The notes beneath the pieces are model-generated. The model saw nothing but the letters and a program-made list of their open reading frames with translations, searched no databases and was not told the DNA's origin. DNA of 61,791 nucleotides from Candidatus Omnitrophota bacterium (GTDB lineage Bacteria; Omnitrophota; Gorgyraeia; Zapsychrales; Fredricksoniimonadaceae), in contig JADFZK010000013.1 of NCBI GenBank assembly GCA_015232565.1, forward strand, positions 1 through 61,791, read 5' to 3'. The translations under genes were made by a program, and so were the position numbers. Positions within the stretch are counted from its first letter, which is position 1; the number at the start of each line of letters is the position of its first letter. Of this stretch, positions 1 to 8,394 are shown in pieces.

Positions 1-41
1 CATTACTATAGCTGTAATGGTCCGGGGCGGAAGCCTTCTAG

Positions 42-3000
42 ATGATTATCAATCTTTCACCCTATGAGCACGAGCGTATTGTCCCGAAGGCTTTTGGGAT
101 CACGGAGATGGGCCGGGACCTTCTGGCGCAGGACTATATGCTTAAGCAGATCACCGCATCGGTGATCTATCCTGAAGGCGAGGTTGGCAAGGCGTTTTGG
201 TCCAAAGTTTATGCCGAGGCCCAGAAGCGTTACGGCACGACAGATATTCCGGTGGATACTTTTAACAAGGTTTGGATCGTGCCAGAGAAAGCTGTTATTT
301 ACGAAAGCCAGAATTCGGCTTATGTGGTGGAAACTCGCCTGAAAGTAATGCTGGAAACCGACTATTTAGCGACCTCGACCAAAGAAATGCCAACCAGCCC
401 TGGCCCCTTTAGGGGGGGACATGATGCCCCGCCAGCGGATCTCAACGAGCGGGGCTTCGTGTCCCCACGCCGGTTGCCAACCCCTCAACCAACGAATGTG
501 AAAGCAACCCAGGTCTCAACCCCAACGCCAAACGATCCAAACGATCCAAACATCATTGCCAGGAACGTCCTGCGTGAGATCGTTATCCCTGTTCTGGAGA
601 AAGAAGTCAATGAGGGCCAGAATTTTGCGCAGTTACGACAGATCTATCACTCTTTGGTCCTGGCGCTCTGGTTCAAGGCCAGGATCAAAGAAAGTATTCT
701 GGGCAAAGCCTATGTGGATTTAAAGAAGACCGGTGGGGTGGATATTGAGGACAAAGAGGCCAAGGATAAGATCTGGGCGCAGTACGTTGCGGTGTTTAAA
801 AAGGGCGCTTACAACTACATCAAGGAAGAGCTTGATCCGGTTACCCGGGAGGCGGTGCCGCGGAAGTATTTCTCCGGCGGGACAGACATGGGGCAAACCA
901 GCCGGGTGATGACCAAAGCTGATAACGGGCAATTGTTTTCTGGAATTTCAGGTAACGCCAAGGTGATCGTTGAATCCAGGTTTACACCTCTCAATGGTGA
1001 TAATGCTAAAGGACGAACGCGATCGCTATCTATGGACAGCTCGATGTTATTGGCCGGGCCGGAACAACTGCAAAAGATAGCCGAGGCCAGGAAGCTGATA
1101 AACTCTTTTCTCAAGGATTGGGAGCAATGGAAAGAAAAAGCGGGATTCGGTGCAGGAGCTTCCAGGGGTTTGGATCATCTAATAGGTGAACCTTGCACCC
1201 AGATCTTGGGTGGTCTTTGGGATCTGAAAAAAAGAAGAGCTTCAGTGGAATTATATGTGAATTTCCAGGTTGTTTCGCGAAATTTGGTTCAGATCTCGAG
1301 TAGTCTTTACGCCTTGAGCAATGATTATCTGCTTAGCAGTTTATTATCGGAGAAAGGTTTGGCCCGGCTTTTCATGGCAAATTTTCCATCAGTGGTTCCT
1401 GTGGATATGCGGGGACAATCTTATGTGGCCCGCACTATTGCTGATGAGGCCTTTAATGAGAATATGATCGCGCGCATCAGGGAATTTCGCGATACGTACG
1501 AACGTTTATTGCCGCAAGTTCGTAATTTGTTGAGTGACATAAAGCGTCAATTCCATTTTGTAAAGAGCGACTTGAGTATAACTGCCGAGAAGGCATTAAT
1601 AAAAGAATTGAGCCTGGTTGGTTCAAAGACGGACGGCAGGATCACCCGGGATATCACGGACCGGCTGAATGATATTTTTCGCGAGTCCCGCAATAATCGT
1701 CAGGGTCAGGGGTATGCTGCCAGCGTGCAGAGTTTGCACAAATATTTTGATTCGCTGACAGCGGATAATTCTCCTGACCATATTGAGTTGCGAAAATTAA
1801 TCTGGCTCTCGGCCGGGCTTGACAGCGTTATAGGGGATGCGTCTTTGGATGTGCTTGTGCACGGTGCGGATCGCGATTCGATATTGGCTTTGCTGGGTGA
1901 TTATGTGAAGGGGGGAGAGATTAATTCAGCCCGGGTGCGTCGAACTATGATCATGGGTGGCAATGATATCGAAGTGGATGCGGTGGACGAAATGCTTCCT
2001 GGAAGGGAAATCACCGTGATTAATTTTCAGGCTGACAGGCTTGAGCCGATTGCGGAAAGTATACAAAGAGGGCGGCTGACGTCCGCGATCCATTGGCTCG
2101 GCATGGATGGCACGCGCCTGGATCCGGTCATTTTTCCTGACGGATCGTATAATCTCTTTGTGATGAACGGTATTGAACTGTCGGCTTTCGTCGATACGGA
2201 CCAGGGCCACCGGAGCGTGGAGGCATTGATCGAGACCGGGATCCGTCTGCTTGCACCTGGTGGAGCGTTCTTTGAAGGCTCGTATGGGGTTAACGCCGAA
2301 CGTTATGTTCGCTGGATCAATGCCGGGTTTCTTGTTCACGATGAACTGCATCCGGGCCTTTACTTGCGGACACCAAAGCCCTTCCGCAAGAGCGAGTGGC
2401 TGTCAGAATGGAAGGATGACCCGCTTTTATTGACCTGGGACGAATTGGTGGCGGAGATCAAAAAGATCCCGCTGGTGTTCCAGGATTCGGAAACAAAGGC
2501 TATCATTGGTGTGGTGACGTTTGATCCAGTTGGAAAGACCGGGCATTTGCGGTGGGGGAAGGTCAGTAAGAGCTTACGCGAGGCAGAAGGGGTGACGCAC
2601 AGGACAATGGTCGATGCCACCCGGTCGTTTGGCGTGGATGCGCCCGGCAGAGCCGTGGACTGGGCTGTTTTCGAGTTTGCCTATGATGGTCAACACCGGC
2701 TTTACGGGATCGATGTCTATGCTCCCCTCCTGCGCGAGCGCGAGCATGTGTCGGATGGAGTATTGAAGCTTAAACGCCTTGTGAGGAAAGACCTTCCGAA
2801 GGATATGGATGCGGATCCGGAGTTAAAGCGATTGATGTTTCGAGACGGGGAATTGGCTCTCAAGTTGATCCGGGAGTTGTTGAGAAGCGCACCGGCCGAC
2901 AGTATCAGGGATCTTGAGGTTTCTACCGAGATCGCCGATGGCCGATATTTGAGCATGGTAACGTGGCCGGAATTGGCAAAAGCTTTCGGCTGGCCAGCTG

Positions 3001-3215
3001 ATGATGAGGCTCAGATCGCTGATCCCGCGCAGGAAGGTGGTGTTGATCTGACCCAAAGTTATGCGGGGCTGCGGGCCGTGAATGACGGCCAGGGAGTACG
3101 GTTTAAATTCGATCCAGCCATGATCCGGCAGGTCCAGGATTCGTCGGGCCTGAAGCCGGAGATCATTGGTATTCATCCGCTGACAACATCGGTACCGGAT
3201 TTTCTGGGAGTATAA
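42..3215 (+). CDS. Large modular protein: conserved-type N-terminal domain (NLSPYE...GRDLLAQDY...KYFSGG), variable middle with a degenerate class I SAM-methyltransferase-like fold, and a C-terminal GGVDL motif domain; probably 5'-truncated
   Basis: 1057-aa ORF. In-frame TAG at 39-41 directly before the ATG, no SD and no signal peptide. MTase-like segments MDGTRL..FPDGSYNL and RLLAPGG. Architecture resembles large proteins I recall from Omnitrophota; not database-verified. Confidence 0.6.
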   Translation: MIINLSPYEHERIVPKAFGITEMGRDLLAQDYMLKQITASVIYPEGEVGKAFWSKVYAEAQKRYGTTDIPVDTFNKVWIVPEKAVIYESQNSAYVVETRLKVMLETDYLATSTKEMPTSPGPFRGGHDAPPADLNERGFVSPRRLPTPQPTNVKATQVSTPTPNDPNDPNIIARNVLREIVIPVLEKEVNEGQNFAQLRQIYHSLVLALWFKARIKESILGKAYVDLKKTGGVDIEDKEAKDKIWAQYVAVFKKGAYNYIKEELDPVTREAVPRKYFSGGTDMGQTSRVMTKADNGQLFSGISGNAKVIVESRFTPLNGDNAKGRTRSLSMDSSMLLAGPEQLQKIAEARKLINSFLKDWEQWKEKAGFGAGASRGLDHLIGEPCTQILGGLWDLKKRRASVELYVNFQVVSRNLVQISSSLYALSNDYLLSSLLSEKGLARLFMANFPSVVPVDMRGQSYVARTIADEAFNENMIARIREFRDTYERLLPQVRNLLSDIKRQFHFVKSDLSITAEKALIKELSLVGSKTDGRITRDITDRLNDIFRESRNNRQGQGYAASVQSLHKYFDSLTADNSPDHIELRKLIWLSAGLDSVIGDASLDVLVHGADRDSILALLGDYVKGGEINSARVRRTMIMGGNDIEVDAVDEMLPGREITVINFQADRLEPIAESIQRGRLTSAIHWLGMDGTRLDPVIFPDGSYNLFVMNGIELSAFVDTDQGHRSVEALIETGIRLLAPGGAFFEGSYGVNAERYVRWINAGFLVHDELHPGLYLRTPKPFRKSEWLSEWKDDPLLLTWDELVAEIKKIPLVFQDSETKAIIGVVTFDPVGKTGHLRWGKVSKSLREAEGVTHRTMVDATRSFGVDAPGRAVDWAVFEFAYDGQHRLYGIDVYAPLLREREHVSDGVLKLKRLVRKDLPKDMDADPELKRLMFRDGELALKLIRELLRSAPADSIRDLEVSTEIADGRYLSMVTWPELAKAFGWPADDEAQIADPAQEGGVDLTQSYAGLRAVNDGQGVRFKFDPAMIRQVQDSSGLKPEIIGIHPLTTSVPDFLGV
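388..482. repeat. In-frame REP-like palindromic insertion bounded by an 8-bp direct repeat
   Basis: TGCCAACC at 388-395 and 475-482, offset 87 bp (29 codons). Internal hairpin GGGGACATGATGCCCCGC (415-432) / GCGGGGCTTCGTGTCCCC (449-466). Confidence 0.65.
528..551 (+). repeat. 9-bp tandem repeat (CCAAACGAT, about 2.7 copies) encoding PNDPNDPN
   Basis: Read directly from the sequence. Confidence 0.85.
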
Positions 3216-3467: not shown

Positions 3468-3989
3468 ATGAGAAAAGTTTTTGGGGTATCGGTAATGGTT
3501 GTGGGTTTTCTAACGGTTGCAGGTTCAACTCTTTTGCATGCCCAGGCTCCGGTTGATGCGGCGGCTCCGGCGGCAGTTACGGCTCCGGTTGCGGTTAATG
3601 AACCGGCGGCGGGCGCTCCGGCGGCGGCAATGGAAGAAGATAAGTTCTCTTTTGGTAAAGTGATCTCGGTGGTCGACGGTGTGGTGACGGTGAAAGAATA
3701 TGATTTCACCAAGGACGCCGATGTGGAAACCGTTTACACGGTAACTGCCGAGACCGAGCTGGGTAATGTGAACGCGGTGGCCGATCTTAAGGCCGGTGAT
3801 GATATCGTTATCGATTATCTTGAGAAGGATGGCAAGCGGGTCGTTACGACATTGGTTAAGGAAGAAAAAAGCACCGAGGTTATGAATGGTGAAGGTGATG
3901 CGGCGGCTAATGCTACCGCGCCTGCGGTTAATGATGCAGTTCCTGCTCCTGAGGCAGTCATGAATGAGGCGGCACCCGTTCAGCCCTAA
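3468..3989 (+). CDS. Exported protein with a small beta-barrel/OB-like domain and Ala/Pro-rich flanks
   Basis: SD AAAGGA, signal peptide (..LLHA-QA), GKV..V.DG..TV and LKAGDDIVIDY patterns. Confidence 0.7.
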   Translation: MRKVFGVSVMVVGFLTVAGSTLLHAQAPVDAAAPAAVTAPVAVNEPAAGAPAAAMEEDKFSFGKVISVVDGVVTVKEYDFTKDADVETVYTVTAETELGNVNAVADLKAGDDIVIDYLEKDGKRVVTTLVKEEKSTEVMNGEGDAAANATAPAVNDAVPAPEAVMNEAAPVQP

Positions 3990-4000
3990 GAGGTTTGCTT

Positions 4001-4243
4001 ATGGAAAAAGGGAAAGTGAAGTGGTTCGATCGCAAGAAGGGTTTTGGTTTTATTACCACGCCTGAAGGAAAAGATATTTACGTGCATTACAGTGGTATTC
4101 AGGCTGAAGGTTTTAAATATCTGGTGGACGGAGAAGAAGTCGAGTTCGAGGCCCAGGAAGATGACCGTGGCCAGAAGGCGGTAAATGTAGTCCGGTTGGA
4201 TCCGCCGCCCGAGAAACCGCGCAGGGAGCGCCTCGAGCCTTGA
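4001..4243 (+). CDS. csp: Cold-shock domain protein
   Basis: GKVKWF, KGFGFI (RNP1), IYVHYS (RNP2); SD GAGG before ATG 4001. Confidence 0.95.
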   Translation: MEKGKVKWFDRKKGFGFITTPEGKDIYVHYSGIQAEGFKYLVDGEEVEFEAQEDDRGQKAVNVVRLDPPPEKPRRERLEP

Positions 4244-4275
4244 AGTGTCCGTTGGGAACAGTTTATTAATATGAC

Positions 4276-4322
4276 ATCCCCGACTTTGCTCTTTGCTGGC
4301 AGTAAAGTCGGGGATTTTTTTT
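4276..4322 (+). terminator. Intrinsic terminator between csp and mntP
   Basis: Perfect 12-bp stem ATCCCCGACTTT / AAAGTCGGGGAT ending in a T8 tract. Confidence 0.85.
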
Positions 4323-4332
4323 GGATCGAAAT

Positions 4333-4896
4333 ATGAGCCTGGTAGTTATCTTTATGACCGCTGTGGGATTGGCAATGGATGCTTTTGCCGTGGCGCTGGC
4401 CAGCGGCTCTGCGGTGGCCGGGTCGCGTTGGCGCCATGCCTTGCGCCTGGGCGGGGCTTTTGGCCTGGCGCAAATGTTGATGCCGTTAATAGGCTGGTTC
4501 CTGGGATTTAAGCTTAAGTCGGTCATAACCTCGTTTGACCATTGGATCGCTTTCGGCCTTTTGGTCTTTATCGGGGTTAAGATGTTGCGCGAATCGTTCA
4601 GCGCTGACGATTGCGTTCGCAGTCCGGAGCCGCTTACTGCGCGCCGGTTGTTGGTGCTTGCGGTGGCTACTTCTATTGATGCGCTGGCTGTCGGCGTGAC
4701 CTTTGCTTTTTTGGATTGTCCGGTGGTGCAGGCTTCTGTTATCATTGGGGTGGTGACTTTTGTTATTGCCGGGGCGGGTGCGTTGATCGGGGCTTTTTGT
4801 TGTTGCTTGTGGGGCCGCCAAGCTGAGCGGCTGGGCGGTATCATTTTGATACTCATCGGAGCCAAGATACTGGTAGAACATTTATGGACCATATAG
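4333..4896 (+). CDS. mntP: Manganese efflux pump MntP family
   Basis: LAMDAFAV and ATSIDALAVG repeats, DHWIAF, six hydrophobic segments. Confidence 0.92.
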   Translation: MSLVVIFMTAVGLAMDAFAVALASGSAVAGSRWRHALRLGGAFGLAQMLMPLIGWFLGFKLKSVITSFDHWIAFGLLVFIGVKMLRESFSADDCVRSPEPLTARRLLVLAVATSIDALAVGVTFAFLDCPVVQASVIIGVVTFVIAGAGALIGAFCCCLWGRQAERLGGIILILIGAKILVEHLWTI

Positions 4897-5225
4897 ATCG
4901 CATGGCGGTAGTGGTTTTCTTTCGCGAACCCTTCGTGGATTGGCTTAACAGCGTAGACCCGGATAAGCCGGTATGGATGGGGTCTTTGACCGAGCGCGGC
5001 AATGTTTATCTGATCCCTGAATTTGAGGATATAGATGAGGCCGAAGAACATGTGGAAGAGATATTCGACGAGATATTCGTAAACGAGTTGTCGGAGTGGC
5101 ATACTGACCAGTCGCTGTGGCCGGCGGAACGCACTTACGATATGTTCCTGGAATGGTTCGATGTGCTTTATGACGTGGCGGTTTTTGACACCATCGGTGA
5201 AACCGATGACGATACCCAGAATTGA
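4884..5225 (+). CDS. Small acidic conserved hypothetical protein
   Basis: PFVDWLN...VYLIPE...IF.NEL..W...WP..R...F.EWF pattern; overlaps the mntP end. Confidence 0.75.
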   Translation: MDHIDRMAVVVFFREPFVDWLNSVDPDKPVWMGSLTERGNVYLIPEFEDIDEAEEHVEEIFDEIFVNELSEWHTDQSLWPAERTYDMFLEWFDVLYDVAVFDTIGETDDDTQN

Positions 5226-5238
5226 ATGCTCTGGTGGA

Positions 5239-5934
5239 TCATTTTAAGTATTCCTGCCTCTTTCTCTCTGCAAAACGCTCAATGGCATAACGCAACATGG
5301 TCCGCGGCATCTTTTGGTAACGGGGGCGCAGGTAATCTTCCAGTGCGTGCTGGTTGCGCTTGCCGGCTTCGCGTAACATCCAGCCGGTCGCTTTATGTAT
5401 AAGGTCTTCCCGGTCAGTCAGCAGTTTGTCCGCCAGGTTGAAAGTTTCGGCTAATTGTCCCCGGCGGATGAAAGCCAGGGTGCTTACGATTGCAATGCGC
5501 CTTTCCCAAAGCATAGTTGACCGGGCGAGTCGGCCCAGAATTTTCCGACTGCGGTCGACTAAATGCTCTCCTAACAGTTTTGGTGCCGACAGGTCTACCA
5601 GGTCCCAGTTGTTTATTCGGGCGGTATTGTCCAAATACAGGCTGATTATCTTTTCCTGATCATGAAGGTCGCTGTTTTTGTATTGCATTATTAGGATCAA
5701 CAGTGCGAGCAGGCGTTCTTCATGAACCGGGGAATGCAGTAATTTGCGGGCCTCGGTTAGGGGCAGAGTGCTGAAAGCTTTGGCGGTTAAACGGGTATGC
5801 GGGACTGTTACGCCTATGAAGATATCTCCCTCGCCATATTGGCCGGGCCCGGTTTTAAAGAATGAGCGCAGAATTTGGGCTTTTTCTGGTGAGGCATAGC
5901 CATGCAAAGCGGTGGTTGCCAGGATAGCGGTCAT
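5239..5934 (-). CDS. alkD: DNA alkylation repair glycosylase, AlkD-like
   Basis: FFKTGPGQYGEGD, NNWDLVD, IHKATGWMLRE, MPRTMLRYAIE; SD GGAG supports the 5934 start. Confidence 0.9.
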   Translation of the reverse strand: MTAILATTALHGYASPEKAQILRSFFKTGPGQYGEGDIFIGVTVPHTRLTAKAFSTLPLTEARKLLHSPVHEERLLALLILIMQYKNSDLHDQEKIISLYLDNTARINNWDLVDLSAPKLLGEHLVDRSRKILGRLARSTMLWERRIAIVSTLAFIRRGQLAETFNLADKLLTDREDLIHKATGWMLREAGKRNQHALEDYLRPRYQKMPRTMLRYAIERFAERKRQEYLK

Positions 5935-6010
5935 AAAGTCGTTCTCCAGAAATAGCGGATTCAGGTTGCTTGAGAGTTCTTTGTAAACTATTATATTCGA
6001 TGCTAATGCT

Positions 6011-6862
6011 ATGAACAATAAAGCCGCTGTTTTTTTTGTTTTCATGCTTTTTTCGTCGGCGCGTTTTTTATACGCCGCGGATACGCTTGTCCAGCAGGAT
6101 GAGGCATATTTCCGCCTGGATGAATTGAAGAAAGCTTATGCCGAGATCTCGGGTAAAGATGCGGAGATCGGCCGTGTGATACTCGAGAAGGCGGGCATAA
6201 AGGAGGAGCTGGATAAGGTTAGCAGTGAGAATAAAACCCTTTTGGACCGGCTCTCGTCTTTACACCGCGGGATACTTGAACGGGAGCGTAATGAGCCGCA
6301 AAGGCTGGAACAGTTATCCGCGCCTTTGCGTGCCCGGATCGATGAGCTCAGTCAGCAATTACAGATGCAAAAGCTGGTGATCGACCAGAAGAATCTCAGG
6401 ATCGACGAATTAACTGCGGCCCATAAGTCTTCCTTGAAAGAACTTGAACAGGTTTCCGGCGAAAAACTGGTTATCCGCACCGAATTGCAAAAGCTTTCGG
6501 ATCAGCTGGATGGCGCCCGGACTTTATTTGAGAACAAATCGACGGATGAACGGGCGGGCTTCGAGGCCAAGATCAAGGATCTGCAGTCGCGTTTGTCGGC
6601 CGAGCAGACTCTCACAAAAGAAAAGATCCGGCAGGCCGAAAAGCCTTTATTGGACAAGCTGGCGGCTCTGGAGCCTTGTCCGGCGCAATTAAAGGTAAAA
6701 GAGGCCCAACTGGCGGTTTTGAGCACGGAAAAGAGCGAGCAGTCGGTGCGCGCGCTTTCATTTGAAAGCAAAAATGCCGAGTTGCTGGCGCAGATAAACG
6801 AGTTAAAACAAAGCCTGGAAGCGTTAAAGCGTAATGCAAAGGGCTTACCGCTCAAGCCATAA
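6011..6862 (+). CDS. Exported coiled-coil protein
   Basis: N-terminal signal peptide, then heptad-rich E/K/L/Q sequence. Confidence 0.7.
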   Translation: MNNKAAVFFVFMLFSSARFLYAADTLVQQDEAYFRLDELKKAYAEISGKDAEIGRVILEKAGIKEELDKVSSENKTLLDRLSSLHRGILERERNEPQRLEQLSAPLRARIDELSQQLQMQKLVIDQKNLRIDELTAAHKSSLKELEQVSGEKLVIRTELQKLSDQLDGARTLFENKSTDERAGFEAKIKDLQSRLSAEQTLTKEKIRQAEKPLLDKLAALEPCPAQLKVKEAQLAVLSTEKSEQSVRALSFESKNAELLAQINELKQSLEALKRNAKGLPLKP

Positions 6863-6882: not shown

Positions 6883-8394
6883 ATGGGGTGGATGATGGAA
6901 GACAAGACAAGCAGGTTGTTCTGGTTCTGGCTGGGTGGTCTGGCATTATTGGGTGGTGTGATGGTGTATTTGATGTCGTCGGTTTTGGGCTTGGGTATGA
7001 ATGCCGAGGCGGTGACATATACCCAGGCGGCCCGGCATTTTCTTTTGGCCAAAGGGATGTCTGTTTTTAACCATGCCGGAGAGTTGGCTCCGCTGGACGG
7101 CTATCCGCCGGTTTTCCCTGCCCTGCTTGCGGCGGCCTGGTTTATTGGTTTAAGCTTTGCCGAATGGGCCCGTCTTTTAAATTCGGTGTTTTTTGGCGGC
7201 AGTATTTTCCTGGCTGGCTCGATTGTTTATTACGTGAGAGGCTCGCGCTTTGCTGCCCTGGTTACCGCCGGGATCTTTATGGCTTCTGTTCACATTCTTA
7301 AAGCGCACGGCTTGTTGGTGGCCGAACCGTTGTTCATATTTCTGGTACTGGCTGGTTTCAGGGGTTTGCTGGTGTTTGTTAATACCGGCAGTCGAAGTGC
7401 GCTTTATATGGCAGCTTTATTGGCGGCAGCTTCGGTGTTGACGTCCTATTACGGGGCGGCGTTTGCGCTGGCCGGTTTTTATTGGTTATTGCGTCAAGGC
7501 AGGGCCGAGGGGAAGGCGCGGGACGCGTTTCTTTTCTTGCTGGCCGTCAGCGTTCTTCCGGCTGTGTGGTTTGTGCGCAATGCAGTTTTGACCGGGAATA
7601 TCCTAGGCATTTCTTCGGGCGCTGTTCCCGAAGGTGTCGCCAGCCGGTTGCTGGCGGTGGTGAGCGCGGTGTCCGGCTGGTTATTGCCGGCCAAAGTTCC
7701 GGTATTATTGCATTTGACGGTGCTGGCAGTGGTTTTGGCATTGCTGGTTATCTGGCTTAAAAATAATTGTCAGAGCTTTGGCGCTGAAGTAAAACGGGCA
7801 CTGTCTTTGGCGGTTATCTTTCTGGTGCTTTTCTTCCTGGCGGCTTTATCCGGTATTGTTCCCGGGCAGATCTTGTTTGCGGATCATATGAAGCTGGTGG
7901 CTTTGTACGCTATGTTCGCGTTGATTTTCGGGTTACTGGTTCCGGTGGCCTGCGAGTTCAAGACAGCATATTGCAAAGTGGCCGTGGGTTTGGTGGTTGG
8001 TTTCTTCGGCTTGGCTTGCGCTCGTGCGGTCAATCTGGCGCTGATACTGAATAAAGAAGGTGACGGGTATTCTTCCAAAGCTACCGGCGCGTCAAAATTA
8101 ACCGAAACACTGCGCTCTATTGACGACCGGGTTCCTTTGTATTCAAATGATCCGCAGGCAGTTTATTATTTTGCTGGTCGTCCGGCGATCATGGTGCCTG
8201 GTGGAGCCGGGAACGGAGCTTTGGTAAGCCAAGTTATGTCTGCTGATTTTAATTCGCGCCGGGCGGTGGCGGTGATCTTTAACCAGGCGCCTGGTTTTTC
8301 TGTTAAGGTGTGGGAACAGTCAGCGGCCACGCTGGGCCTGGTGCCTTTACTGAAGGATAAGGACGGAGTTATCCTGGGCCTGAAGAAGAAATAA
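6883..8394 (+). CDS. GT-C fold (ArnT/PMT-like) integral membrane glycosyltransferase
   Basis: Many TM segments; YPP.FP and EPLFIFL motifs; soluble C-terminal tail. Confidence 0.6.
   Translation: MGWMMEDKTSRLFWFWLGGLALLGGVMVYLMSSVLGLGMNAEAVTYTQAARHFLLAKGMSVFNHAGELAPLDGYPPVFPALLAAAWFIGLSFAEWARLLNSVFFGGSIFLAGSIVYYVRGSRFAALVTAGIFMASVHILKAHGLLVAEPLFIFLVLAGFRGLLVFVNTGSRSALYMAALLAAASVLTSYYGAAFALAGFYWLLRQGRAEGKARDAFLFLLAVSVLPAVWFVRNAVLTGNILGISSGAVPEGVASRLLAVVSAVSGWLLPAKVPVLLHLTVLAVVLALLVIWLKNNCQSFGAEVKRALSLAVIFLVLFFLAALSGIVPGQILFADHMKLVALYAMFALIFGLLVPVACEFKTAYCKVAVGLVVGFFGLACARAVNLALILNKEGDGYSSKATGASKLTETLRSIDDRVPLYSNDPQAVYYFAGRPAIMVPGGAGNGALVSQVMSADFNSRRAVAVIFNQAPGFSVKVWEQSAATLGLVPLLKDKDGVILGLKKK

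Follow-up and report, generated by a model that had tools for sequence, protein, structure and literature searches.

Polymorphic toxins carry a variable toxin domain at the extreme C-terminus and have an immunity gene immediately downstream. In TpsA exoproteins, such as CdiA and FHA, the signal peptide is followed by an N-terminal TPS domain. T9SS cargo proteins of Bacteroidota consist of a signal peptide, functional domains and a conserved C-terminal sorting domain.

Very long 'multi-enzyme' or Archaeovorin-type proteins have been described in the phylum Omnitrophota (bioRxiv 10.1101/2023.11.21.568195; bioRxiv 10.64898/2026.06.07.730766). In the accessible text of these preprints, they appear as proteins of many thousands of residues with signal peptides and strings of metabolic or regulatory Pfam domains, for which an extracellular or membrane location is suggested. 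The very long Omnitrophota proteins are mostly read as membrane-associated in the accessible part of one of them (bioRxiv 10.64898/2026.06.07.730766).

IS1111 elements are described, in the available portion of the source, as having subterminal inverted repeats with short extensions and a non-coding region downstream of the transposase (PMC11187229). The seekRNA-guided members ISEc11, ISKpn4 and ISPa11 combine a DEDD transposase, 6-nt/3-nt extensions and a long non-coding region in this position, and their targets are a repeat element, an integron site or a transposon end (PMC11187229, available portion).

Here we describe an open reading frame (ORF) at the start of a 61,791-nt stretch of Candidatus Omnitrophota bacterium DNA (GenBank assembly GCA_015232565.1, contig JADFZK010000013.1, positions 1 to 61,791 of the forward strand), hereafter the window. 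The ORF (42..3215, plus strand, 1057 aa) is almost certainly a truncated member of a protein family with a conserved head, a variable cargo and a conserved tail. We consider it reasonably likely that the locus as a whole represents the 3' part of such a gene from Omnitrophota, cut by an IS1111-type insertion sequence (IS).

The family resembles T9SS cargo: a Sec signal peptide is combined with functional domains that vary freely, and many paralogs share a short conserved C-terminal domain. It resembles TpsA exoproteins in its conserved ~300-aa N-terminal domain after a Sec signal peptide and its variable distal parts. Unlike T9SS cargo, it belongs to a different phylum, its tail has no match to a Por_Secre_tail-type model, it has the head as a second conserved module behind the signal peptide and its cargo is of cytoplasm type. 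Unlike TpsA proteins, it has no TPS-domain match, its head is mixed alpha/beta rather than a beta-helix and ShlB does not co-occur. The multi-enzyme and Archaeovorin-type proteins are similar in phylum, signal peptides, domain content and suggested location but differ in their great length, and the accessible text describes no shared head, tail or D-x-[AS]-M joints for them.

A modular protein family in Omnitrophota

An earlier note, made from the window sequence alone, had proposed a multi-copy architecture of fixed termini around exchangeable middles. Iterated searches with separate HMMs of the two ends bear this out: in this genome the front is found in 66 ORFs and the end in 59, with 51 ORFs having both. 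Both ends recur well above chance level. The 280-aa front (aa 3-280) matches 114 stretches in the genome, and the 78-aa end matches 34 places at the C-termini of the same ORFs. At best, the head is 83% identical to that of a 3127-aa paralog (C17), and the two middles share nothing detectable. The window middle is unrelated to those of the paralogs and matches only itself and part of one other ORF (C9, E 1.6e-15).

In total, 74 family ORF pieces comprise 90,080 codons, or 10.2% of the 2.64-Mb assembly. Of 5938 database candidates with lengths of 581-1850 aa, 4343 are relatives at E<=1e-10, and nearly all relatives with a named organism are labelled Omnitrophica or Omnitrophota. Across the phylum, 69 of 301 sampled genomes carry the head; within the order to which the window belongs, 26 of 28 do. 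Literature searches, which included the accessible text of two Omnitrophota preprints, found no description of the head/tail pair, in agreement with the earlier note, which knew of no functional description. Head-cargo-tail proteins are an undescribed family of putatively exported Omnitrophota proteins with about 66 copies in this genome. A complete member consists of a Sec-type signal peptide, a ~320-aa head, a variable cargo and a ~65-aa tail.

The truncated head of the window copy (51..881, plus strand, aa 4-280) is delimited by paralog matches, alignment and a structure model. It contains the motifs NLSPYE (aa 4-9), GRDLLAQDY.LKQ (aa 24-36), TFNKVWI (aa 73-79) and RKYFSGG (aa 274-280). A proline-rich in-frame loop insert with a strong DNA hairpin (414..560, plus strand; blastn, RNAfold and alignment gap pattern) is a repeat common to at least 12 paralog heads, where it occupies the same loop at 79-94% identity (blastn).

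The complete head of ~320 aa adopts a mixed alpha/beta fold in the model of an intact paralog (pLDDT 80.7, pTM 0.72). This head is confidently modelled, and the model matched no solved fold: Foldseek gave a best E of 0.032 at TM 0.13, and none of the 48,161 chains compared by VIA-align reached Z>=5 (best Z 3.7). The best match of the head profile to PDB sequences had an E of 0.025, the ESM Atlas yielded no head match >= 0.9 and no Pfam family was matched by more than 4 of 49 heads. Lipid-binding proteins (latherin, BSP30b, Der f 7) and pore formers (NheA, MakB, IpaB) appear among the head fold matches at noise level only.

The tail domain of the window copy (2973..3215, plus strand, aa 978-1057, followed by the stop codon) includes the conserved ~65-aa region GG-I/V-D-L ... 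G-L-x-P-V-I. The C-terminal block marked in the earlier note, GGVDL (aa 999-1003, nt 3036-3050) followed by G.G.RF.FD (aa 1016-1024), is present and lies in this domain. Only the last ~40 aa of the tail are modelled at pLDDT 73-84, and the rest is poorly modelled. No NCBIfam family was matched by more than one of 57 tails, and the tail profile had no match at all among PDB sequences. Neither terminus matches a characterised domain: Pfam and NCBIfam gave 0 matches at E<=1 for the protein, and PDB searches by sequence and fold were empty.

Truncation by a probable IS1111-type element

The first 50 bases of the window (1..50, minus-strand reading) are the left end, upstream of the transposase, of an unassembled IS. 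They are shared letter for letter by 11 contig ends, and the codons downstream diverge. This end consists of a 6-nt extension, a 13/14-nt subterminal inverted repeat and a hairpin. The apparent start of the window ORF, ATG ATT ATC ('MII', 42..50, plus strand), is made of IS-derived codons behind an in-frame TAG (39-41) and is identical in all 10 IS-cut copies. Intact paralogs read L/Q/M-W-V in its place.

The motif-dense N-terminal block described in the earlier note is present with all its motifs, but it does not begin at a true protein N-terminus, as the TAG and the IS end show; the 'chassis' drawn there is an IS-truncated one. We identified 48 intact paralogs that extend upstream of NLSPYE through a conserved ~75-aa leader, ending in ...KYFLASLTVPEKD-LWV, and a signal peptide. 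Relative to the window ORF they are longer by about 110-130 residues, which hold the Sec-type signal peptide as well as the hairpin and helix with which the head begins. The window copy lacks the signal peptide and the leader part of the head, corresponding to residues 1-81 of the intact-paralog model (first beta-hairpin and first long helix). Absence of the signal peptide is a secondary loss, because a site-specific IS inserted in the most conserved codons of the family.

The partner IS end occurs at 13 places, with junctions that read ...LWV followed across the breakpoint by ACCCATTAG. Twelve of these lie in family leaders and one in a transporter-like gene. The insertion point, shared by 12 paralogs, separates the Val codon from the Asn codon in the invariant W-V-N-L-S-P motif. 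Although GTNAACCT occurs 255 times in the genome, 12 of the 13 insertions are in family heads.

The partner end on C15 reaches 635 nt into the element, up to the 3' end of a DEDD transposase gene, in the order family leader, 431 nt of non-coding DNA, transposase C-terminus. Relatives of this transposase fragment comprise eight proteins (best 92% identity), with PF02371 in 8/8 and PF01548 in 7/8. The DEDD transposase pair of IS1111 (PF01548 and PF02371) is thus represented by the C15 C-terminus together with its longer relatives. The inverted repeats are set in from the two ends by 6 nt and 3 nt, and the 431-nt non-coding region is downstream of the transposase. These features make it very likely that the element is of IS1111 type.

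In its DEDD transposase, 6-nt/3-nt extensions, long downstream non-coding region and orientation-specific insertion at one sequence, with no target duplication seen, the element resembles ISEc11, ISKpn4 and ISPa11 as presented in the available portion of PMC11187229. Unlike the targets given there, its preferred target is a conserved protein-coding motif of a 66-member gene family. We also identified AUGGGUU and AGGUUGA, short candidate matches (6-7 nt) to the two target strands, flanking a hairpin within a 9-bp stem just past the transposase stop, in the order given for IS1111 elements (PMC11187229, available portion). A consensus 7-mer test was not significant (1158 of 2000 shuffles equalled it), the energy of the fold is ordinary (z = -1.06) and no Rfam family matched the C15 part of the element. 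The guide RNA is a candidate only, compared with the seekRNA of ISEc11, ISKpn4 and ISPa11.

The IS end was not found in the genome and metagenome contigs searched or, allowing up to 3 mismatches, in 167 other genomes of the order. BLASTP of the 55-aa transposase fragment against the other IS110-type transposase, on C43, gave no match. A group II intron was dropped as a candidate for the junction; inverted repeats are present, and the ends are by eye unlike group II boundary sequences.

Insertion of this element, whose DEDD transposase is followed by 431 nt of non-coding sequence, at the Val/Asn codon boundary of W-V-N-L-S-P has deprived the window copy of the promoter-proximal region, the signal peptide and one quarter of the head. 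The IS may find the family through an RNA guide from its own non-coding region. Cut off from its leader, the window copy most probably has no activity as an exported protein and, if translated from the IS-derived ATG, would stay cytoplasmic.

Could the window ORF instead be a real signal-less variant, with the IS end supplying a start codon and perhaps transcription, and with a cargo that acts in the cell's own cytoplasm? An in-frame ATG does lie 9 nt inside the IS end, and all 10 cut copies are open to their own end or the contig end (391 to 1581 aa). The common insertion phase fixes the frame, however, so the in-frame ATG may be chance, and identical IS ends suggest recent insertions, so intact frames need no selection. 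A by-eye reading of the 41 nt upstream reveals no clear ribosome-binding site, and the head model predicts that removal of residues 1-81 takes out the core hairpin and helix. We consider such a variant highly improbable.

Cargo domains

The head of the window copy is followed by a spacer (882..1046, plus strand) of low model confidence that ends in DSSM (aa 332-335, nt 1035-1046). The next segment (1047..1868, plus strand, aa 336-609) is an orphan and probably helical, with long helices modelled at pLDDT 30-70 and no match among 1.84 billion representatives. It precedes a class I SAM-methyltransferase-fold module (1869..2396, plus strand, aa ~610-785; pLDDT ~90, Foldseek and profile) that contains motif I (IMGGNDIEV, aa 637-645) and LLAPGG (aa 736-741). 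The cargo closes with a second orphan segment of mixed alpha/beta character (2397..2972, plus strand, aa 786-977, pLDDT 40-60).

Foldseek returned at least 500 PDB matches to the methyltransferase module at E<=1e-3 (best 2pxx, 9.3e-7; NodS, TM 0.54-0.63), and those among the matches listed are all methyltransferases or methylation domains. A profile of the module aligns motif I with the tRNA methyltransferase 8k5l (E 4.5e-4). These results support a Rossmann-like seven-strand fold of the class I methyltransferase kind in the middle, where the earlier note had read a methyltransferase-like Rossmann fold and called it degenerate. The module has eight relatives in all among the 1.84 billion representatives, and relatives match Methyltransf_11/25 weakly; Pfam gave no match at all for the window protein itself, and NCBIfam likewise (E<=1). 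As modelled, the window cargo is one class I methyltransferase fold between two orphan segments.

Across this genome, Pfam-recognisable cargo of cytoplasm type is found in 16 of 72 family pieces and includes ABC1 kinase, PPDK, PGM, HATPase, receiver, DnaJ, sigma-70 region 4 and methyltransferase domains. Cargo of the database relatives includes glycosyltransferases and epimerases. It is hard to see what enzymes that depend on ATP, SAM or a cluster would do outside a cytoplasm, a point against export.

Possible export and functions

Two observations are consistent with an exported family. First, 44 of the 48 intact copies have a signal-peptide-like start by a crude heuristic. Second, cysteine makes up 0.21% of family residues vs 1.22% in other ORFs >= 250 aa, with a single cysteine in the 1057 aa of the window protein. 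A junction motif, D-x-[AS]-M, occurs 0.78 times per 1000 aa in the family vs 0.14 in other ORFs (5.5-fold enriched). It follows heads closely, stands shortly before and within tails, and is found at joints in the interior of long members. The earlier note had pointed to four short D-x-A/S motifs near the junctions of the window protein (DNAK 320, DSSM 332, DEAQ 988 and DPAQ 994). All four are present, but only DSSM fits the family-wide pattern; DPAM, conserved inside the tail (aa 1024-1027, nt 3111-3122), was absent from that list.

The signal peptides and the scarcity of cysteine suggest that intact members are exported through Sec. Head and tail may be common modules for handling or sorting, by which cytoplasm-type enzymes would be taken beyond the inner membrane. 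Destinations could be the cell surface, the medium, or a host or prey cell. D-x-[AS]-M would mark module joints and may be cut. We give a role in export or delivery slightly less than even chances. A membrane-helix-like stretch follows the head in 8 of 48 members, and some family members may stay membrane-bound. No outer-membrane partner was identified for family export, and ShlB/TpsB does not co-vary with the head. As a candidate partner, ShlB/TpsB was rejected on its distribution, with ShlB in 14/15 and the head in 0/15 of group f15, and ShlB in 1/6 and the head in 5/6 of group f14. SprA_N (PF14349), used as a marker of T9SS machinery, had no match in the genome, nor in any of 14 control genomes.

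The signal peptides and membrane-helix-like stretches would also fit use in the cell's own envelope, where Sec-exported enzymes, scaffolded in the periplasm or at the surface, serve envelope or glycan chemistry or nutrient processing and the head and tail provide anchoring or oligomerisation. Sugar-metabolism cargo (PGM/PMM here; glycosyltransferases and epimerases in relatives) points the same way, as does the membrane association of most very long Omnitrophota proteins in the accessible text of bioRxiv 10.64898/2026.06.07.730766. DnaJ, sigma-70 region 4, receiver, HATPase, PPDK and radical-SAM cargo, however, need cytoplasmic partners or cofactors, and the very high paralog number and cargo turnover suit an interaction repertoire over housekeeping. 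Overall, we regard envelope use as possible but unlikely.

A further reading, close to that of the earlier note, would make the family a set of polymorphic toxins or effectors, with fixed ends that address a dedicated secretion apparatus and middles that are toxic payloads against competitors. It draws on the many paralogs with fixed ends around exchanged middles, a repertoire of ~10% of the genome, the scarcity of cysteine, as in several secreted substrate classes, and the six secretin genes and one ShlB-type transporter gene in the genome. Polymorphic toxins differ in architecture, however: here the variable part is internal and the C-terminus is a conserved tail. Among the 270 ORFs that neighbour family genes (within 2.5 kb), no immunity-like gene recurs, in a search that a highly diverse immunity set would escape, and the biggest cluster outside the family, of 6 members, resembles a mobile or defence gene. 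Pfam matches of the cargo are metabolic or regulatory, not nucleases, deaminases or ADP-ribosyltransferases, and the recognisable module of the window copy is a methyltransferase fold. Because of the central variable part, the lack of recurring immunity and the non-toxin-like cargo, 'polymorphic toxin' is an analogy and not membership, and we consider a toxin system very unlikely. By the heuristic given above, the signal peptides of the family are also ordinary Sec-type ones.

Implications

We return to the reading of the locus as an IS-cut member of a Sec-exported head-cargo-tail family. A more ambitious version would join both halves: a lineage-specific effector repertoire of host-dependent Omnitrophota, made of cysteine-free, cytoplasm-type enzymes that would leave by Sec, be handled by a head of new fold and a new tail, undergo cleavage at D-x-[AS]-M and end up in host or prey cells, many members of which are switched off or reshuffled by an RNA-guided IS1111 element whose guide evolved against W-V-N-L. 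We think this combination unlikely. If true, a guide against W-V-N-L could switch off many members at once and reshuffle them via recombination between copies.

Public gene calls that start with 'MIINLSP' are IS artefacts in which the signal peptide is hidden, and annotation could be misled by them. An IS1111-type element homing to a conserved coding motif would be a natural RNA-guided-type insertion aimed at proteins, not repeats, and the IS and the W-V-N-L codons form a testable target/guide pair. One putative export frame is common to about one-tenth of this genome and to thousands of proteins from a single branch of the phylum, which is little known and probably host-dependent. This frame has no known fold or partner and carries enzymes expected to work only in the cytoplasm. 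Explaining it would tell how ultra-small Omnitrophota interact with other cells.

Family size, modularity and range

The window opens with an ORF (42..3215, + strand) that encodes 1057 aa. It contains, each in its place, the motifs that the earlier note had read in it, and has no match in Pfam or NCBIfam at E≤1. The window covers the first 61,791 bases of contig C31 (62,632 bases), which belongs to an assembly of 2.64 Mb in 80 contigs, with a completeness of 93.9%. When every stop-to-stop frame of the genome was searched iteratively with HMMs, we identified its N-terminal block (the head) in 66 ORFs, its C-terminal block (the tail) in 59 and both in 51. Eight pieces have a tail but no head; as read from coordinates, seven of them sit at a contig end or behind an in-frame break, and the eighth is on C16. 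Together, 74 family pieces make up 90,080 codons, or 10.2% of the assembly. The full head is kept in 48 copies, and a crude heuristic assigned a basic-hydrophobic-AxA start to 44 of them. Two family genes appear to be split into a head ORF and a tail ORF on the same strand, with a single in-frame stop between them on C59 (2-3928 and 3932-6229) and about 1.1 kb on C39 (33-1205 and 2325-3125).

The window head is 83% identical to the head of a 3127-aa paralog. For the 692-aa middle, a single partial relative was found within the genome, and among 1.84 billion representatives it is matched by eight proteins, all over aa ~590-785 only. The proposal of a multi-copy modular family with uncharacterised termini is supported on two points: homologues are neither single-copy nor alignable end to end, and the termini match no known domain pair. 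Pfam matches at E≤1e-5 were obtained for 16 of 72 family pieces, every one to a cytoplasm-type domain.

We identified 4343 proteins outside the genome that match the head at E≤1e-10, counted in the 581-1850 aa size range. Organism-labelled relatives are nearly all from Omnitrophica/Omnitrophota, and relatives are annotated as hypothetical or after the cargo they carry (radical SAM, NUDIX, histidine phosphatase, histidine kinase). When the phylum was sampled evenly, the head was detected in 69 of 301 genomes and 50 of 206 genera, including 26 of 28 genomes from the window's own order, and was not found in several well-sampled families (0 of 15 genomes in f15 and 0 of 17 in f16). At the threshold used, the family thus marks a lineage rather than the whole phylum.

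Predicted structures

A model of an intact paralog's head, based on an alignment of 49 paralogs, contains three beta-hairpins and long helices (pLDDT 80.7, pTM 0.72). The best Foldseek match to it had an E of 0.032 at TM 0.13, and VIA-align returned no match at Z≥5 among 48,161 chains. The model of the window protein's cargo and tail is poor (mean pLDDT 60), with the exception of aa ~610-785 (about 90). This segment is predicted to adopt a class I methyltransferase fold, in agreement with the methyltransferase-like fold noted earlier in the middle of the protein, and its motif I aligns with a solved tRNA methyltransferase. The cargo segments on both sides of this module are orphans.

An insertion sequence at the left edge

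The front block had been taken for a true N-terminus. The left edge is instead an insertion sequence (IS) junction, as indicated by an in-frame TAG immediately 5' of the ATG and by a start shared with other contigs. Eleven ORFs, ten from the family and one unrelated, have their start 33-44 nt from a contig end, and all begin with a common ~50 nt ending in ...TAG ATG ATT ATC, beyond which they diverge as paralogs do. The partner side is found at 12 contig ends and at one site within C15, where the text always reads ...K-Y-F-L-A-x-L-T-V-P-E-K-D-L-W-V before an identical foreign sequence. The junction texts on both sides thus place the element inside the codons for the invariant W-V-N-L-S-P motif, after Val and before Asn. 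The junction maps to residues 81-82 of the head model, so that, besides the signal peptide, a hairpin and a helix modelled with confidence are missing from the window protein. The earlier observation on the window is real, except that IS insertion has created an artefactual left edge.

The C15 copy is traceable over 635 nt, where a second, different repeat interrupts it. It comprises 431 nt without a long ORF followed by a protein C-terminus. This fragment has eight longer database relatives (best 92% identity); PF02371 is present in all eight and PF01548 in seven, the domain pair of IS110/IS1111 transposases. One inverted repeat is set back 6 nt from the end next to the transposase and the other 3 nt from the opposite end; the long non-coding region follows downstream of the transposase gene. 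Exactly this spacing and placement are given as marks of the IS1111 family (PMC11187229). The end of the window's IS was not found in any other genome searched.

Of the 13 junctions on one side, 12 are in family heads, as are 10 of the 11 on the other. The one pair left over (C1/C80) interrupts a transporter-like gene at GGTT|AACCT. This sole non-family insertion, at the end of C1 and the start of C80, reads ...IPV|NLAAAQ, again between Val and Asn-Leu codons, in what appears from translation only to be a dicarboxylate/amino-acid:cation symporter-like gene. The genome contains 255 occurrences of the 8-mer GTNAACCT. In IS1111 elements, a seekRNA derived from the non-coding region directs insertion to a single target (PMC11187229). 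Immediately beyond the transposase stop codon is an internal loop enclosed by a 9-bp stem; the sides of the loop, AUGGGUU and AGGUUGA, flank a small hairpin and could pair with both target strands across the insertion point, and their order is that reported for IS1111 seekRNAs (PMC11187229). Against the majority consensus, a 7-mer test did not reach significance (1158 of 2000 shuffles did as well), and the fold energy is ordinary (z = -1.06). The structure is only a candidate seekRNA.

We also identified at least five more sets of 8-11 contig ends with identical terminal sequences (groups B, D, E, F and G), probably representing further multi-copy insertion sequences; one of these repeats interrupts the IS1111-type element in C15. 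A different, IS110-type element on C43 has an intact 366-aa transposase gene (6891-7988, - strand; PF02371 match) that adjoins the family gene at 4334-6604 on its upstream side. Within the window head, an in-frame Pro-rich loop insert (414-560) is a repeated DNA element, containing a strong hairpin, that is also found on C17, C65, C62, C29, C59, C50, C9, C78, C58 and other contigs. It is 79-94% identical among paralogs, apparently more than the adjoining head codons (judged by reading), occurs once outside a head (C29:43260-43416) and contains the ends of several contigs. Downstream of the window's family gene (3468-4896) are three small non-family ORFs, read from translations only: one of 173 aa with a hydrophobic N-terminal stretch and rich in Ala/Pro, a cold-shock-like ORF of 82 aa and a membrane ORF of 191 aa.

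Joint motif and proposed export role

Cysteine accounts for 0.21% of residues in the family versus 1.22% in non-family ORFs that are 250 aa or longer. The motif D-x-[AS]-M occurs 0.78 times per 1000 residues in the family versus 0.14 elsewhere. Its sites fall right behind heads, right before and within tails (there as F-x-F-D-P-A-M), as well as at joints inside long members; the window protein has DSSM (332) and DPAM (1024). Among the looser D-x-A/S motifs previously listed, DSSM fits this pattern, and DNAK, DEAQ and DPAQ do not.

Membership in a polymorphic toxin family, suggested by the same modular layout, fails because no recurring immunity-like partner was found near family genes and the variable part is not C-terminal. 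Tails did not match Por-type models, nor did heads match TPS models. The genome has one ShlB/TpsB-type transporter gene (C61:19922-20728), and we rejected ShlB-type transporters as partners since their distribution does not follow that of the head. Six secretin genes in the 2.64-Mb genome (on C70, C77, C26, C4, C55 and C21) are possible exits for family proteins.

Literature searches, and passages of two preprints on Omnitrophota giant proteins, yielded no account of the head, the tail or the joint motif. The head-cargo-tail family is genuine and very large. Judging from its sequences, its most likely role would be the exported carriage of enzyme cargo.
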